Shown one piece after another: positions 4,001 to 47,985 of a stretch of 64,000 nt of DNA. A model generated the notes under the pieces. It was given only the letters and a program-made list of their open reading frames with translations, was not told where the DNA came from and did no database searches. The stretch covers positions 149-64,148 of the forward strand of contig JACPHP010000012.1 of the NCBI GenBank assembly GCA_016188605.1, in the 5' to 3' direction. The DNA comes from Candidatus Spechtbacteria bacterium. GTDB taxonomy: Bacteria; Patescibacteriota; Minisyncoccia; Spechtbacterales; JACPHP01. Numbering within the stretch: the first letter of the stretch is position 1; each line of letters begins with the position of its first letter. Position numbers and translations under genes: made by a program.

Positions 4001-4445
4001 AGTTAAATAATAAATTTGAACCTCCTATTATTTTAAAAAAAATAAGAAAAGAAGTTCATTAAAAATTATATTTAGGACTTACGCGTTTGTACTTAATTAT
4101 CTGACGACTCAAATGCGCAATGTCCTAATATTGTCGACTCATTATTATAGACATCATAGTATGATATCTATATTTTTTTAAAAACATTCGTCGTTTATTT
4201 TATTTTTCATTGTCCTCTCTTTTTAGCGTCGACCTCATTGAAAGGAAACGAGAACATATTTCAGGAAACACATGCCCGCGCGATGCACTATGCGCAAGTA
4301 TATATTCCCTTGAACCAACTTATTCTGGCTTATTATGATAACGCACAAAAAATGCGCATATACCAAAGGTTAGTTGGAAAGATGAATGTTCTTTTTTATT
4401 GTATCAAATAATTATTCAATAGCAAACAATGCAAGCTGTGGATAA

Positions 4446-5000
4446 CTGAAACACGGATATACACGGATGCGAACACGGATGCACGCGGATACAGATAGAC
4501 ACAGATTCACGCGGGCAAAAACGGTTTGCGGTCGTTGGTGTAGATAATTCTTTTAATATAGAGCTTGGGCGTAGAAAAATTCACAAGAAATCCCACTTCG
4601 TACTTACTATTTCTCAAATAGTAATAAAGCTGTTTTTCGTCTATTTTAGTTGTAATATTGGAAGATTTTAACTCTACAATAATCTTATCGCTGACAAGAA
4701 AATCCGGCCTGTATGCGCCAGCTATTTCCCCTCCAGGCGTACGCACATTTATCGCTTTTTCTTTTTCAAAAGACAGATTATTGCTTTGCAAAAGCTCTGC
4801 TAAAACTTTAGAATAAATGCTTTCTTTCTGTCCGGGACCATATCCATTACGAATCGCGAAAAATAAACCGCGCAATTTATAAGAAAGCTCTTGGTGTAAT
4901 AAGTTATTCATCATATAAAAATTAGCACGAACAAACTATCCGTGTCTATCCGTATCCGTGTATATCTGTGTTCACATCTGTGTTGTTCTGTGTCTAACCG
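4446..5000. mobile_element. Putative cassette: a GxxExxY nuclease gene flanked by inverted arrays of heptad repeats (ACACGGAT units on the left, ATCCGTGT units on the right).
   Basis: The left arm 4446-4515 and right arm 4931-5000 are imperfect inverted repeats. Both are built from (a)cacggat / atccgtg(t) and acagat / atctgt units. Confidence 0.35.
4507..4914 (-). CDS. GxxExxY-family protein (predicted PD-(D/E)XK nuclease fold).
   Basis: It contains the GQKESIY (GxxExxY) motif and D...ELK motifs. Size is 135 aa. Confidence 0.75.
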   Translation of the reverse strand: MMNNLLHQELSYKLRGLFFAIRNGYGPGQKESIYSKVLAELLQSNNLSFEKEKAINVRTPGGEIAGAYRPDFLVSDKIIVELKSSNITTKIDEKQLYYYLRNSKYEVGFLVNFSTPKLYIKRIIYTNDRKPFLPA

Positions 5001-5014
5001 TGTTTGACTCGCAA

Positions 5015-5048
5015 ACCAAAAACCGCCCCGAAGGGCGGTTTTTGGTTT
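5015..5048. terminator. Bidirectional rho-independent terminator (AAAAACCGCCC-CGAA-GGGCGGTTTTTGG).
   Basis: GC stem with A/T runs on both sides. It sits 50 nt past the stop of the 1424-aa gene. Confidence 0.7.
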
Positions 5049-9690: not shown

Positions 9691-9756
9691 GTCTCCCCAG
9701 CTAGATCCTGAACTGCGCCGTAATTACGGGTTTGTTCAGGACTAAGCTGGGGAGAC
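9691..9756. repeat. Long imperfect hairpin (about 23-bp arms) enclosing the perfect 12-nt palindrome CCGTAATTACGG.
   Basis: Seen directly. Confidence 0.55.
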
Positions 9757-9935
9757 AGCTCTTAATAAAGAAAAACCTATCCTCCTTGGTGCCAAGGCGG
9801 ATAATCCGTTCAATCGCTACCTTGCACTAAATAGGTGCGAAGCCCCAAAGGGGCAAGGCAGTGATTGAACGCTTATCCAATTATATCAAAGAACTGCGTA
9901 TGTCTAAATGTGGATAAGTTTCTTTGCTTATCGCG

Positions 9936-10799: not shown

Positions 10800-11375
10800 T
10801 CATTCTAGCTTCAACCTCTCACGAAGGGCATTCACACCCCTATGGGCAATCACCCGCACCGTGCCTTCGGGTTTTCCGACAATATCCGCAATATCGCTAA
10901 ACGGCAGGTCTTCCAAGTAATGCAGGGTAACAATTTCCGCCGTTTCTTCGCCGATTTCTGACAATGCCTGGCGTATACGCGCTATATCAAGAGAGTTTTC
11001 TACGTCTATGTTTATAGCATGCGCTTCGTCTATGCCGCCATGTGTTTCTGGGGCAGCCAACATATCTTCGTACGATACTGTGGGTCGCTGTTTGCGATAG
11101 TAGTCAATCAGGCAATTACGCGCTGTTTTATACAAAAACGCGCGAACGTTTTGAATGCCGCCTAGCGATGTGAGTACGGACGATTCCTGCGCGATAAAAA
11201 CGGCTTTATGCCCATTTTTAGATATCAGATAATTCCACATTCTAAGAAATACTTCCGAAGATAAATCCTGCGCAGTCTCCCTCGAATTTGTTTTCAAAAA
11301 CAGGAAACGAAAGATTTGATCGGCGTACTCGTCGTAAACGCGAGAAAAAAGTTGTTGAAATTGCCTATCTGTCAT
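10800..11375 (-). CDS. ECF-type RNA polymerase sigma factor (sigma-70 family regions 2 and 4).
   Basis: Region 2 is FLFLKTNSRETAQDLSSEVFLRMW. Region 4 is LPFSDIADIVGKPEGTVRVIAHRGVNALRERL. Confidence 0.85.
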   Translation of the reverse strand: MTDRQFQQLFSRVYDEYADQIFRFLFLKTNSRETAQDLSSEVFLRMWNYLISKNGHKAVFIAQESSVLTSLGGIQNVRAFLYKTARNCLIDYYRKQRPTVSYEDMLAAPETHGGIDEAHAINIDVENSLDIARIRQALSEIGEETAEIVTLHYLEDLPFSDIADIVGKPEGTVRVIAHRGVNALRERLKLE

Positions 11376-11380
11376 TCGTG

Positions 11381-11520
11381 ATTATAGACATTTAATGACA
11401 TTTACTGACATTTTATAATGCGATTATAGACATTTAATGACATTTTGTAGACATAGTTAATGACATTTACTGACATTTATATTTTAAGCAAAATGTCAGT
11501 AAATGTCATTAAATGTCTAT
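11381..11520. promoter_or_regulatory. Three copies of a 31-bp element (ATAGACATTTAATGACATTTACTGACATTTT): two direct (one interrupted) and one inverted. They abut the sigma factor start codon.
   Basis: Direct copies lie at 11385-11415 and 11428-11479; the inverted copy lies at 11490-11520. The recurring core is TGACATTTA. Confidence 0.5.
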
Positions 11521-11608: not shown

Positions 11609-11631
11609 CCCCCCCCCCCCCCCCCCCCCCC
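11609..11631. repeat. Homopolymeric C23 tract.
   Basis: It lies between the stop of 11653..12303 and the sigma factor promoter region. It could be a slipped-strand site or an assembly artefact. Confidence 0.6.
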
Positions 11632-33597: not shown

Positions 33598-34908
33598 TTA
33601 CGGCCGCTCTGCTAGGATTGCCTGCACTGTTTTTTCTTCGCCGCGATGAAGAATTTTTATTATGATTGTTTCGCCCACATTATGCTTGGCAATAAGGTCG
33701 GGAAGACTATTTTCTACGGTAATTTTTTTACCGCTAATTTCTAAAATAATGTCATTTTCAACGATTCCCGCCCTATCTGCCGGCGAGCCGGGCATGACGG
33801 CAAGTTCACCCGCCTGCTGGCCGCGCACAACGAGCGCGCCGTAATCAATAGAAAGATTATTTGCCTTTTGTATTGAGTCGTTAATAGTCATAGTGCGCAC
33901 ACCCAAAAATGGATAGCTTATTTTGCCCTTTTCCCGCACATCCCGAATGTCCTTCTTGGCTCTGTTGATGGGAATTGCAAAGCCAATATTTTGCGCGCCC
34001 TCAGCCATCGCGACGTTAACTCCGATCACCTCTCCCGCCAAGTTCAACAGCGGACCGCCGGAATTGCCCGGATTAATCGCCGCGTCAGTTTGAATTAATT
34101 CGCGCAAACGCTCTGATTCCACCCCCTTGCCATTTGCCGTCACGGAACGACGCAAGCCAGACACAACGCCAAGCGATGTCGTATTGTCAAACTCCCCGAG
34201 CGCGTTTCCAATTGCAATGACTGTCTGGCCCTGCGCCAATGCGTCGGAGTCCCCCAACTCAAGAGGCAAAAGGCTAATGCCTGTTACGCGCAAAAGCGCG
34301 AGATCTTCAAACGGATCGCGGGCTACAACCTTTGCTTCATGCTTTTCCCCGTCAGTAGTAACAACCGTATAATCTGCCTCATCGTCTGACACCACATGCT
34401 TATTAGTAAGCACCAGTCCGTCTTTCGATACAACAAAGCCAGTTCCCGCAGAAACTTGTTTTTGTGTTTTTTGCTGATTTTGAGGAGTTTGCGGCGTCAG
34501 TTGAGGGAAAAATTGCTGGAAAAAGGGATCATTAAAAAATGGTGAATAAACCACTGGCACGTCTTTTGTCGCCACCACACTCACCACGGAAGGAGATGCT
34601 TTTTTTACAACGGCTATAATTTTGTCTTCTTGAGAAGTTTGGGGCTGATATATGACCTGTGGGCCGTCCTGACTATTTTGGCCCTGCGTAATCATTTCCT
34701 GCTGCATAGGACGACGTTCAATCTCTCCGAAATATGTTTTTACAAATTGCGGCGGATAATAAAGCACGACAATTGCGCCGCCAAATCCCGCGGCAAAAGA
34801 AATTAGAATGATGACAAAAATTTTCCCAATGAAAAATGTTGGATGATGGCGATCTGCTTTGTAGGGAGAAAATGGAGAAAGCATGGTGATAAAATAATTA
34901 AAGTCCAA
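33598..34908 (-). CDS. htrA: HtrA/DegP-family serine protease with a C-terminal PDZ domain.
   Basis: The catalytic triad context is TNKHVV / DLALLRV / GNSGGPL. It has an N-terminal TM; the start is uncertain. Confidence 0.85.
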   Translation of the reverse strand: MDFNYFITMLSPFSPYKADRHHPTFFIGKIFVIILISFAAGFGGAIVVLYYPPQFVKTYFGEIERRPMQQEMITQGQNSQDGPQVIYQPQTSQEDKIIAVVKKASPSVVSVVATKDVPVVYSPFFNDPFFQQFFPQLTPQTPQNQQKTQKQVSAGTGFVVSKDGLVLTNKHVVSDDEADYTVVTTDGEKHEAKVVARDPFEDLALLRVTGISLLPLELGDSDALAQGQTVIAIGNALGEFDNTTSLGVVSGLRRSVTANGKGVESERLRELIQTDAAINPGNSGGPLLNLAGEVIGVNVAMAEGAQNIGFAIPINRAKKDIRDVREKGKISYPFLGVRTMTINDSIQKANNLSIDYGALVVRGQQAGELAVMPGSPADRAGIVENDIILEISGKKITVENSLPDLIAKHNVGETIIIKILHRGEEKTVQAILAERP

Positions 34909-35036
34909 ATTACAAATGACAAATCAAATCCAAAACTCAAATGTCAAAAGACTATAAGATAGAACACTATAATAGTTATTTTAATTTTTAAATTTTGACA
35001 TTGCTTTGACATTTGTAATTTGTAATTTGACATTTT
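34896..35036. repeat. Heptad-repeat palindromic element (arms built from CAAATGT/CAAATCA units and TTTGACA/TTTGTAA units) in the htrA upstream region.
   Basis: The left arm 34896-34950 and right arm 34991-35036 are inverted repeats. The TTGACATTT core resembles the element upstream of the sigma factor gene. Confidence 0.5.
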
Positions 35037-35054
35037 TATAACAAACAAAATATT

Positions 35055-47057: not shown

Positions 47058-47172
47058 ATAATTATCTCAAATGTCAAATCGCAAATCTCAAATCAAAATC
47101 TTAAATATAAAATCTTCGCTAGTAATTTTGAGATTTGAGTTTCAGTTTTGCGATTTTAGATTTGATTTTTGA
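47058..47172. repeat. Heptad-repeat palindromic element (copy A; CAAATCT-type arms) between ftsE and ftsX. It is preceded by a 15-bp-stem hairpin at 47017-47050.
   Basis: Its core TTTTGAGATTTGAGTTTCAGTTTTGCGATTTTAGATTTGATTTTTGA is almost identical to 47933-47978. Confidence 0.6.
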
Positions 47173-47175
47173 AAT

Positions 47176-47856
47176 TTATATCTTATATTTCCCCTTCTTA
47201 ACATCCCTTGTTATTCTTCCATTCTCCAACGTAACCACCCGCCGTCCAAGCGCGTCAACAATTTCCTTGTCATGAGTTGCCAGAATAACCGATGTTCCAA
47301 GCTCGTTAATTTTTACCAATAATTTAATAATTTCCCAAGTATGAATGGGGTCAAGATTTCCCGTCGGCTCATCTGCTAAAATAATTTCCGGACGTTGCAC
47401 GAGCGCGCGAGCCAATGACACGCGTTGCTTTTCGCCTCCGGAAAGCTCCTGAGGAAAACGATTTTCCTTTCCCTGCAAATCAACTAACGCCAGCGCCTGC
47501 GGCACGTCTTCAAAAATTTCGGCATCACTCTTCCCCGCCGCTTCCATCGCAAATGCAATGTTTTCAAACACGGTTTTACTTGGCAGTAATTTAAACTCTT
47601 GGAACACTACTCCTATACGCCTGCGATACCCGGGAACCTCGCGTCCGCGCAACGAAAAAACATCAACACCCTTAAAAAAAACTCGCCCATTGGTGGGGTG
47701 TTCTTCGCGTAGCAGTATGCGGAGTAGGGTGGATTTACCCGCACCCGAACGTCCAACCAATGAAACAAATTCGCGGTCTTCTATGCGAAGCGTGACATTG
47801 TCCAAAGCAGGGTCTTCGTTGGGATAAATTTTACTGACTTCTTGAAATAGAACCAT
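47176..47856 (-). CDS. ftsE: Cell-division ATP-binding protein FtsE.
   Basis: Contains [26 protein letters not shown] and [12 protein letters not shown]. Confidence 0.9.
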
Positions 47857-47870
47857 GAGAATTGCTACTT

Positions 47871-47985
47871 AATCTCAAATCTTAAATGGCAAATCTTAAA
47901 TCTACATCTCAAATCTAAAATCTTTGTCCGTAGTTTTGAGATTTGAGTTTCAATTTTGCGATTTTAGATTTGATTTTTGAGATTT
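47871..47985. repeat. Heptad-repeat palindromic element (copy B) between prfB and ftsE.
   Basis: It is about 95% identical to copy A across the roughly 60-bp core. Confidence 0.6.

Follow-up and report, generated by a model that had tools for sequence, protein, structure and literature searches.

Why does the gene of a small predicted nuclease of the GxxExxY family lie between two inverted arrays of short repeats, and does this gene drive the arrangement or is it carried by it? In the window, i.e., the whole stretch of 64 kb analysed here, the cassette extends over 4451-5003 (553 nt) and is made of one gene between two inverted core arrays. An earlier inspection of the letters without database searches (the sequence-only reading) had located it correctly, with slightly different ends, as a 555-bp cassette at 4446-5000.

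Layout of the cassette in the window

An inverted-repeat search delimited the arms at 4451-4506 and 4938-4993, of 56 nt each, 79% complementary and with 431 nt between them, and on direct reading of the sequence the start-side arm reaches 5003. Each arm contains 6-7 cores, 8-mers of the type ACAC(G/A)GAT spaced by about 10 nt; the inverted tandem arrays had been recognised before as arrays of heptads, a unit that has to be corrected to 8-nt cores at a spacing of 8-12 nt. The stop-side terminal arm (4451..4506) has six cores, which on the plus strand are ACACGGAT at 4451, 4461, and 4473, ACGCGGAT at 4483, ACAGAT at 4491, and ACACAGAT at 4499, and abuts the stop codon of the nuclease gene, whose final codons include a seventh, degenerate core of the same array (4509-4516). 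The start-side terminal arm (4938..5003) is the reverse complement of the stop-side arm and has seven cores that read on the plus strand, in the inner part, ATCCGTGT at 4938 and 4954 and ATCCGT at 4948 and, in the outer part, ATCTGTGT at 4964 and 4976, TTCTGTGT at 4986, and AACCGTGT at 4996.

The arms are short, degenerate, and complementary at 79% of positions, features that might be expected from chance or low complexity with no real inverted-repeat relation; however, this explanation is refuted by the inverted-flank alignment score of the cassette, which is 52 vs 14.6 +/- 2.3 in shuffles (z 16) and far above the scores of 88 control ORFs (median 15, 99th percentile 24), by the repetition of the pattern at more than 80 independent loci, and by the enrichment of the cores, within the window, at the cassette only. 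In particular, the window contains 6 copies of ACACGGAT vs 1.4 expected, five of them within the arms, and ACACAGAT occurs 5 times vs 1.1 expected, with 3/5 within the arms; no second cluster of either core was found in the rest of the 64 kb. As the sequence-only reading had maintained, the two arms are genuine inverted repeats, and they are in register.

The spacer from the start-side arm to the ATG (4915..4937, 23 nt) showed no promoter-like site on its minus strand in a promoter scan, and a terminator-like match (4954-4926) extends into the innermost part of the start-side arm. Folding of the sense RNA (571 nt) predicts that the arms pair with one another (z -4.5). Outside the element, 9 nt beyond the start-side arm, a perfect 16-bp hairpin followed by a T run (5013..5048) is interpreted as an intrinsic terminator that serves the upstream gene of 1424 aa; this terminator directly upstream of the cassette, together with the negative promoter scan, is a point against the explanation preferred below. 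Beyond the stop-side arm, and also outside the element, a TTATCCACA 9-mer and a promoter-like -35/-10 pair (TTGCTA-16-TACAAT) occupy 4398..4445, and this putative promoter is assigned to the downstream gene of 885 aa, just beyond that arm. TTATCCACA at 4437 and at 9909 precedes, by about 10 nt, the promoter-like -35/-10 pairs of large surface-protein genes; a DnaA-box role for the perfect TTATCCACA found outside the arm in the window and at locus L021 was rejected in favour of a component of host promoters, which does not belong to the cassette.

The nuclease gene (4507..4914, minus strand) encodes a protein of 135 aa with the motif G28-E31-Y34 and the catalytic residues D71, E81, and K83. Its assignment to the GxxExxY family, already made from the letters, is borne out by the profiles TIGR04256 (GxxExxY; 101.7 bits, cut-off 35, E 3e-29) and PF13366 (PDDEXK_3; 98.6 bits, cut-off 22). 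All 31 close-clade sequences retain G28, E31, Y34, P70-D71, and E81-x-K83, and no variation occurs in 6 distant GxxExxY members at the equivalents of the catalytic and motif residues. The AlphaFold2 model of the protein (pLDDT 90.4) has a PD-(D/E)XK fold whose top Foldseek matches are lambda exonuclease, LHK-Exo, and Cas4 SSO0001 (E 3e-4 to 1e-3, TM about 0.45-0.5); among solved structures the best match by sequence is T7 endonuclease I (E 0.012), and a search for a close homologue among them gave none, with generic PD-(D/E)XK matches only. From the invariant catalytic residues and the confident fold model, the predicted nuclease appears to be active. It is the sole ORF of the cassette, inside which no transposase gene (DDE, HUH, serine, or tyrosine) was found, and a lone PD-(D/E)XK nuclease is not known to perform strand transfer, which weighs against the explanation preferred below. 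The PF13366/TIGR04256 family is large and present in many bacterial groups, with at least 588 related loci in a pattern scan, and a survey of PD-(D/E)XK proteins lists its function as 'Unknown' (PMC3424549).

Recurrence of the arms and evidence for an inserted unit

The flanks of other GxxExxY copies, which the sequence-only reading had proposed to compare and whose lack of arms would have refuted it, generally carry arms too. Both gene ends have inverted core arrays in 26/38 close-relative loci, most of them from Patescibacteria (z > 4), and in 56/76 metagenome loci of a distant clade (above the 99th percentile of the control), collected by a locus scan built on a three-sequence alignment; among six plasmid-record copies, those of Bacteroides, Bernardetia, and Sphingomonas (3/6) have multi-core arms, and that of Treponema has one 12-nt inverted repeat only. 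The arm pattern around GxxExxY genes was thus seen in more than 80 loci of several bacterial groups, and the loci with undetectable arms, about a quarter, are counted against the preferred explanation. A typical cassette is about 0.45-0.55 kb long and comprises a gene of about 125-135 aa and 3-9 cores per array. Within one cassette both arms always share the core, while between cassettes the core varies (ACACGGAT, ACGAAT, ACTAAT, ACGCGAA, CACAGAG, and CACGAAG are examples); L021 contains two cassettes about 1 kb apart with unlike cores, which argues against a common host factor. The arm-to-arm conservation is 87% for the cores vs 66% for the spacers (p 6e-10), the commonest core spacing is 10 nt in the close clade and 9 nt in the distant one, and a CAC-containing core was found repeatedly in the bacterial groups sampled; on these grounds the arms look like iterated recognition sites. 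The start codon is frequently inside the upstream arm, with a resulting N-terminal extension 'MRTQNNTD'. Co-orientation of the upstream neighbour was seen in 33/35 close-clade and 44/60 (73%) distant-clade loci vs a baseline of 74-88%; it was judged uninformative, and a dependence on read-through from the upstream gene was discarded as a candidate. No GxxExxY relatives were found in the viral contigs scanned, and no published account of such arms in the literature on the GxxExxY family, repeat palindromes, and foldback elements, a search that covered the sources other than the curated free text of TIGR04256.

Comparison of the loci establishes, at the level of sequence, that gene and arms are mobile as one unit. 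Homology across unrelated contexts is confined to the gene and its arms and ends at the outer arm edges, as in the locus pairs L007/L012, L003/L004, L009/L020, L005/L013, L089/L107, L080/L101, and L067/L078. Empty sites, also sought in relatives as had been suggested, were found at two positions: in Sphingomonas parapaucimobilis the cassette separates fabD from fabG, which are 30 nt apart in S. paeninsulae, and in Bacteroides finegoldii (protein WP_032839887.1) a cassette with perfect 15-nt termini lies between radA and the gene of an FAD-dependent protein, which are 13 nt apart in Parabacteroides distasonis. The junctions at the empty sites, which belong to other species at about 72% identity, are unreadable for target-site duplication. 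Cassettes are located in short spacers between host genes, often right behind a stop codon and also within conserved operons, and beside co-directional genes the arms occupy the entire intergenic gap; at L014 the ends of the flanking ORFs are read by eye as those of putative leuC and leuD.

Decayed copies are represented by the frameshifted genes of L017, L020, L030, L033, and L036, by two internally deleted copies, of 141-146 nt, that accompany one full copy at L083, and by gene-less palindromes at L017 and L022 that have the core of their own cassette. A derivative at L083 has AAAAGAG on both sides, a pattern that tandem duplication would also give. Apart from L083, the copy number is two at L021 and one in the 64-kb window, where exact-protein look-ups of the gene and both neighbours, made to find an empty site among strains, gave identical loci only, in five samples; the single copy and the identical locus give no sign of recent activity here and are counted against the preferred explanation. 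The presence of P0039 on 54 contigs was set aside as evidence of multiple copies, because every contig has the same context. Many cassettes are orthologous between diverged genomes, i.e., vertically kept at one locus through speciation, which indicates low mobility or domestication and weighs against the preferred explanation.

The window also contains palindromes without a gene. One of them, formed by ACGAAT cores (58311..58401), is an in-frame insertion in lepA, whose 5' end (host segment 58362-58646) sits between arms; ACGAAT is also the arm core of the GxxExxY cassettes L015 and L024, and the lepA palindrome seems to be architecturally related to the GxxExxY cassettes. At the lepA locus (58311-58646), 205 nt are enclosed by perfect arms of 40 nt. 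Two palindromes of AAATCTC-type heptads (47067..47165 and 47871..47984), with unit and period unlike those of the cassette arms, lie on opposite sides of an ABC ATPase gene, a further one is made of CAAATGA/ACAAAT-type units (34886..35042), and another, absent from the list of the sequence-only reading, consists of GACATTTAAT units (11384..11520) with a 10-nt period and a 31-nt perfect inverted repeat. That reading had attributed the arm architecture of the cassette to elements at 34896-35036, 47058-47172, and 47871-47985, which are real palindromes and share with the cassette the general architecture only, being built of CAAATGA and AAATCTC units with a 7-nt period. Its suggestion that short elements are gene-less derivatives holds for L083, L017, and L022, but is not supported for these three, which have other units and no gene remnant in their loops. 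Patescibacteria loci hold many gene-less repeat-array palindromes of unrelated units; a separate process may make them, which weighs against the preferred explanation.

Role of the nuclease and alternative explanations

The explanation that we prefer, and regard as somewhat probable, is that 4451-5003 is a copy of a very compact selfish cassette, of wide occurrence, that encodes a nuclease and has repeated binding sites for this nuclease as its arms. We infer the transposition chemistry as well as the putative interaction between nuclease and arms, the ground for the latter being the co-occurrence of the two. The nuclease would recognise the iterated cores at both ends, as a transposase does with multiple end-binding sites, the core spacing being about one DNA helical turn; it would then cut DNA, and the breaks would start copying or insertion, which host repair or recombination would complete. 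Insertion beside or between existing arms would generate tandem cassette arrays. As the start codon is often located in the arms, which can also base-pair once transcribed, they probably limit nuclease expression too. The cassette decays to frameshifted copies and internally deleted gene-less foldbacks.

The sequence-only reading had instead suggested, as one possibility, that the gene is a passenger of a MITE-like palindromic element; in this model the arms are the ends of that element, which another enzyme would move in trans, and the gene is captured cargo. The lack of a classical transposase in the cassette fits with this proposal, as do the gene-less palindromes of many units, for which another maker or mover is possible and which abound at Patescibacteria loci as well as in the window, and the host segments that are found between arms, e.g., the lepA 5' end. 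However, we consider it unlikely, and passenger is not the likeliest role of the gene: the same single protein family lies between arms in more than 80 loci of several bacterial groups, no other family of small cargo genes was noticed in the scanned loci (the scan being made for another purpose), and the core changes from one gene copy to another, even inside one contig. One protein family with arms in several groups and with invariant catalytic residues fits better with a driver.

A distinctly unlikely alternative is that the arms mainly act at the RNA level and form a transcript stem, comparable to that of rRNA intervening sequences or of RNase III sites, that serves to excise, stabilise, or silence the ORF, with the DNA inserted otherwise. 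The pairing of the arms in the predicted sense-RNA fold, the upstream arm that often holds the start codon, and the filling of the whole gap beside co-directional genes agree with it, but the arm mismatches have no G:U bias on either strand (54 vs 59, with 170 transversions), for which reason a purely RNA-structural selection on the arms is not favoured. Moreover, the complementarity of the spacers is far below that of the cores, the core sequence itself has been kept in different bacterial groups, more than would be required for pairing alone, the orientation relative to the neighbours (73%) does not exceed the baseline of 74-88%, and the insertion of the unit is left without explanation. Highly improbable, and largely refuted by the empty sites, is a host gene flanked by operator arrays, in which the repeats are sites for a host regulator and nothing is mobile; operators typically have arrays of short sites one helical turn apart, and vertical inheritance at a fixed locus is seen for several cassettes, yet related species have empty sites, insertions occur within conserved operons, unrelated contexts have no homology beyond the cassette, some copies are decayed or internally deleted, one contig has two cassettes with different cores, and the architecture is common to several unrelated bacterial groups.

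The recurrent cassette suggests an undescribed very small mobile element. A broader extension of the preferred explanation, which we put forward tentatively and with more doubt than conviction, is that GxxExxY cassettes may constitute a new class of autonomous prokaryotic mobile elements of about 0.45-0.55 kb, in which a nuclease of about 130 aa would recognise its own 8-9-nt cores with a specificity that co-evolves in each lineage, and that the gene-less palindromes of Patescibacteria and other bacteria, including the lepA insertion, would be non-autonomous derivatives.

Relation to known systems and significance

In REPIN-RAYT systems, a gene for a REP-associated tyrosine transposase (RAYT, an HUH/Y1 enzyme of the IS200/IS605 type) lies between inverted REPs, which are single palindromes of 20-40 nt, and REP doublets without a gene are scattered over the genome. 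These systems resemble the cassette in having a small single gene bracketed by inverted short repeats, gene-less doublets, and a state that is often single-copy and vertical. In contrast, the gene of the cassette encodes a PD-(D/E)XK nuclease and not an HUH/Y1 enzyme, its arms are arrays of 8-nt cores, and no gene-less element with the cassette core was found in the window, palindromes of the same core as their cassette being known only in L017 and L022. Foldback (FB) transposons are eukaryotic elements with kilobase-scale arms and other transposase types; they share with the cassette inverted ends made of tandem short subrepeats, variable arms, some ORFs in the loop, and many gene-less members, whereas the cassette is bacterial, about 0.5 kb long, and encodes a 130-aa nuclease as its sole protein.

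Free-standing homing endonuclease genes include phage seg/mob, and I-Ssp6803I is a PD-(D/E)XK homing enzyme; they have no inverted repeat arrays and spread via the homology of the flanking host genes, and GxxExxY is, to our knowledge, absent from the characterised homing families. In both cases a selfish gene for a small nuclease is squeezed between conserved host genes, with hardly any spacer and with empty sites in relatives, a likeness of insertion pattern; the cassette is different in being bounded by inverted arrays. Intervening sequences of 23S rRNA, gene-bearing or gene-less, form a long stem whose loop can contain an ORF of about 120-130 aa, a layout similar to that of the cassette, with its ORF between terminal inverted repeats; nevertheless, the cassette is located between protein-coding genes and has iterated cores in place of a continuous helix, and an Rfam scan of the window found three tRNAs and no rRNA. 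TIGR-Tas arrays were set aside as relatives of the arms on their unit size of about 36 nt.

Prokaryotic MITEs include the Rickettsia palindromic elements (RPE), some of which insert in frame into genes (PMC10969869), and the BrickBuilt MITE of Porphyromonas, in which 23-nt direct tandem repeats are placed between small inverted-repeat ends (PMC4596501). Like the cassette, MITEs are small and intergenic with inverted ends, and the lepA insertion of the window behaves like an RPE; however, MITEs are non-coding by definition and derived from ISs with DDE or other transposases, and BrickBuilt has no inverted core arrays around a gene.

For the GxxExxY family, the cassette provides a testable hypothesis, namely that each protein recognises and cleaves the arms of its own cassette. 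Should mobility be driven by the nuclease, the cassettes would rank with the smallest mobile DNA elements that are self-contained and would depend on a nuclease fold that is not known to act alone in transposition, and they would give an origin to at least some of the foldback-type repeats, intergenic and occasionally coding, of streamlined genomes. The matched pairs of protein and core could represent a natural library of short-sequence-specific DNA binders. The arms also account for the frequency of GxxExxY genes on short, broken metagenome contigs and for the spurious extensions introduced by gene callers, N-terminal 'MRTQNNTD...' and C-terminal '...SV'.

The nuclease gene and its inverted arms

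The GxxExxY gene of the window, a 135-aa ORF on the reverse strand (4507..4914) recognized by ORF reading and profile matches, encodes a full-length member of TIGR04256 'GxxExxY' (101.7 bits, cut-off 35) and also of Pfam PDDEXK_3 in profile searches. Directly outside the ORF lie two arms, 4451-4506 and 4938-4993, which are mutual reverse complements (56 nt each, 79% complementary, 431 nt apart). As read from the sequence, the stop-side arm contains six cores (ACACGGAT three times, ACGCGGAT, ACAGAT and ACACAGAT) and the start-side arm, ending at 5003, contains seven (ATCCGTGT, ATCCGT, ATCCGTGT, ATCTGTGT twice, TTCTGTGT and AACCGTGT). Two arm 8-mers exceed expectation in the window, an excess owed entirely to these arms, and the inverted-flank score of the gene is 52 against 14.6 +/- 2.3 in shuffles and a median of 15 among 88 control ORFs. 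The inverted arms, the core enrichment and a score far above shuffles and controls confirm the gene between inverted repeat arms proposed by the sequence-only reading; its arm arrays hold but its heptad unit does not, the units being 8-nt cores 8-12 nt apart, and its bounds of 4446-5000 are corrected to 4451-5003. The upstream 1424-aa gene has its terminator, a perfect hairpin (5013-5048), 9 nt outside one arm, and a promoter-like pair assigned to the 885-aa gene downstream is found outside the other, stop-side arm; the scan found no promoter-like site for the GxxExxY gene, which has the terminator immediately upstream. The locus is identical across five sequencing runs.

An alignment of 31 relatives shows no variation in the GxxExxY motif (G28, E31, Y34) or at the nuclease positions D71, E81 and K83, and the equivalent residues are likewise constant in six members that share just 28-35% identity with the window protein. 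A confident AlphaFold2 model (pLDDT 90.4) gives only generic matches to PD-(D/E)XK enzymes such as lambda exonuclease and Cas4 (TM about 0.45-0.5), while the nearest solved structure by sequence is T7 endonuclease I (E 0.012). The family is classed as 'Unknown' in a survey of the PD-(D/E)XK superfamily (PMC3424549).

Arms and insertion across the gene family

Judged from sequence comparison, the arms belong to the GxxExxY gene family and not merely to the window locus. The close clade was scanned with one genome per species (37 loci, with few exceptions from metagenome-assembled genomes of Patescibacteria) and, with the gene set on the + strand, shows an upstream array and a downstream reverse-complement array at almost every locus. 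The earlier suggestion to check other copies for such flanks is borne out by 26/38 close-clade loci with inverted flanks at z > 4, those below being mostly truncated genes or contig ends, and by the distant clade, where a metagenome scan with a three-sequence alignment gave 80 loci among the matches listed, 76 with usable flanks; 56 of the latter carry inverted arrays of 3-4 CAC(A/G)(A/G)AG-type cores, typically beginning TTCACC. Cores vary by close-clade locus (ACACAGAT, ACACGGAT, ACGAAT, ACTAAT, ACGCGAA, CACAAAT), and within any one cassette both arms always share one core. Six distant copies sampled from plasmid records gave a mixed but supportive outcome: arms are CACAGAGGA x3 / CCTCTGTG x3 in Bacteroides finegoldii, CACAGAG arrays in Bernardetia and CACGCGAAG arrays in Sphingomonas, the Treponema copy has a lone 12-nt inverted repeat, and the remaining two are flanked by direct, not inverted, repeats. 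Neighboring cores are most often 10 nt apart in the close clade, against 9 nt in the distant one. The start codon is frequently within the upstream arm and the stop codon adjoins or falls inside the downstream arm, which results in spurious extensions of database proteins (N-terminal 'MRTQNNTD', C-terminal '...SV').

All-against-all BLAST of the loci (L numbers denote loci of GxxExxY relatives) distinguished two classes of pair: those in orthologous context are homologous throughout (e.g., L011/L017, L023/L034, L094/L121), whereas in unrelated contexts (L007/L012, L003/L004, L009/L020, L005/L013, L089/L107, L080/L101, L067/L078) homology spans only about 405-520 nt, corresponding to gene plus arms. 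Empty sites, proposed earlier as something to look for in related strains, were found in related species: the cassette lies between fabD and fabG in Sphingomonas parapaucimobilis, and these genes are 30 nt apart in S. paeninsulae; it lies between radA and an FAD-dependent protein gene in B. finegoldii, with perfect 15-nt termini (TTCACCACAGAGGAC / GTCCTCTGTGGTGAA), and in Parabacteroides distasonis the two genes are 13 nt apart. In these cross-species comparisons no target-site duplication was discernible. At another locus, L014, the flanking ORF ends were read by eye as putative leuC and leuD. At the level of locus comparison, gene and arms are shown to be a discrete inserted unit, mobile as such.

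Decayed copies and other repeats

Frameshifted copies occur at L017, L020, L030, L033 and L036, and L017 and L022 have gene-less palindromes whose core matches that of their own cassette. In L083 (metagenome contig Ga0308417_1004009) an array at 417-1296 fills the spacer between putative histidine-kinase and response-regulator genes, identified from translation, in the order A'. A-remnant-A'. A-GENE-A'. A-remnant-A'. A, with A and A' denoting the arm in its two orientations. At 146 and 141 nt, and with 86-88% identity to the full copy, the remnants keep the two arms together with the gene's 3' end and its first 13-40 nt. Four outward-facing arm pairs separate the full gene and the two internal-deletion remnants, with junction spacers of 6-7 nt (AAAAGAG, AAAAGAG, AATGGA, AATGAG); tandem duplication and successive insertions at arm junctions are both consistent with such an array.

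Other palindromes of the window are built of GACATTTAAT units (11384-11520), CAAATGA / ACAAAT units (34886-35042), AAATCTC heptads (47067-47165 and 47871-47984) and ACGAAT cores (58311-58401). As single strands they all form more stable folds than shuffled sequence (z -2.7 to -8.7), and similar repeat-array palindromes of many unit types are found in other Patescibacteria loci. The cassette core is absent from all of them, as is any gene remnant, and in three the period is truly 7 nt; at sequence level they are linked to GxxExxY cassettes only through the cores ACGAAT and ACAAAT, which make up the arms of L015, L024 and L029 in other genomes. Thus, the proposal of gene-less derivatives holds for L083, L017 and L022, but for the short palindromes of the window, lacking a common core and a remnant and, in three cases, differing in period, a status as derivatives or carriers of this cassette is unproven.

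Two separate, similar AAATCTC-heptad palindromes bracket an ABC-transporter ATPase gene (47176..47856), whose inverted-flank score of 39 was the only high one among the control ORFs. In lepA (56714..58612, reverse strand; Pfam GTP_EFTU and LepA_C) the palindrome 58311-58401 is inserted in frame, adding ~30 residues to the GTPase domain (GTP_EFTU, residues 7-215) ahead of the DTPGH motif, and resembles in this the Rickettsia palindromic elements; a third arm (58607-58646) overlaps the start codon and is 40/40 complementary to 58362-58401, which places the first 205 nt of lepA inside a pair of perfect inverted arms, as a possibly invertible segment. A run of 23 C (11609-11631), ~90 nt from the GACATTTAAT-unit palindrome and upstream of gene 10800..11375, may either be phase-variable or have arisen in assembly. 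In Prevotella nigrescens (L055, NZ_CP082843.1) three ACAAAT-core palindromes recur every 120 nt (1663-1968) downstream of the GxxExxY gene and make up an annotated 'hypothetical protein' (1604-2035), which is probably not a real gene.

The 9-mer TTATCCACA, the DnaA-box consensus, occurs at 1907, 4437, 9909 and 21467, four times in 64 kb against about 0.5 expected (a rough estimate from sequence length). At 4437 and 9909 it precedes, by ~10 nt, the promoter-like -35/-10 pairs of two large surface-protein genes, and 'AGTTATCCACAGC' is found again before a similar gene in the Uhrbacteria contig L021 (position 1963); the 9-mer probably serves as a regulatory site close to promoters. A GC-rich palindromic motif, AGAGGATAGCCGGGATATCCTCT, is present at both ends of gene 21560..22303, just past the stop codon and in the coding sequence near the 5' end (21522-21553 and 22076-22107); its candidate identities are an operator, a terminator and a further repeat family. 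The long intergenic stretch that precedes the 1424-aa gene contains an imperfect palindrome of 66 nt, GTCTCCCCAGCTAGATCCTGAAC...GTTCAGGACTAAGCTGGGGAGAC (9691-9756).

Role of the arms and nearest analogues

Between-arm identity is 87% in cores and 66% in spacers in the close clade (p 6e-10), and 90% and 83%, respectively, in the distant clade; arm mismatches have no G:U bias on either strand (54 vs. 59, with 170 transversions), and a CAC-containing core recurs across the groups of bacteria sampled. Iterated recognition sites are therefore favored over a simple stem, since cores are conserved above spacers, G:U bias is missing and pairing alone would not demand a given core. In L021 two cassettes about 1 kb apart have different cores (ATTAGTG vs. 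ATCAGCGT), which speaks against a host factor common to both and in favor of a cassette-specific partner, for which the encoded nuclease would be the obvious candidate. These cassettes are at 41-1519 and 1502-1952; the reading frame of the first continues across its downstream arm and enters the next ORF, and this arm encodes a hydrophobic 'SLVSISLLLVLISG' resembling a signal or transmembrane segment that would belong to the protein downstream. Fold prediction for the 571-nt sense RNA has the arms form a long interrupted stem closing the ORF (z -4.5), and this capacity to pair makes a secondary role in limiting expression plausible. Cassette orientation relative to neighbors is not above baseline and is thus uninformative on read-through.

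The cassette recalls REPIN-RAYT systems, with a gene between inverted repeats and gene-less doublets elsewhere, eukaryotic foldback transposons, whose arms are built of tandem subrepeats, and free-standing homing endonuclease genes, wedged between conserved genes. Other near analogues are MITEs, including Rickettsia palindromic elements (PMC10969869) and BrickBuilt (PMC4596501), and the ORF-bearing intervening sequences of rRNA, although the cassette is not in rRNA; unlike HUH or DDE elements, it encodes neither transposase. Every nearest analogue falls short here on a defining feature; the cassette has iterated-core arms and a cargo always from one PD-(D/E)XK family. No description of GxxExxY arms was found in the literature, a coverage that excludes the curated TIGR04256 text. 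The best explanation would be a selfish cassette with terminal arrays acting as cis sites of its own nuclease, through a protein-arm interaction and a movement chemistry that we infer, and in kind it is rated as a small selfish nuclease or foldback element.
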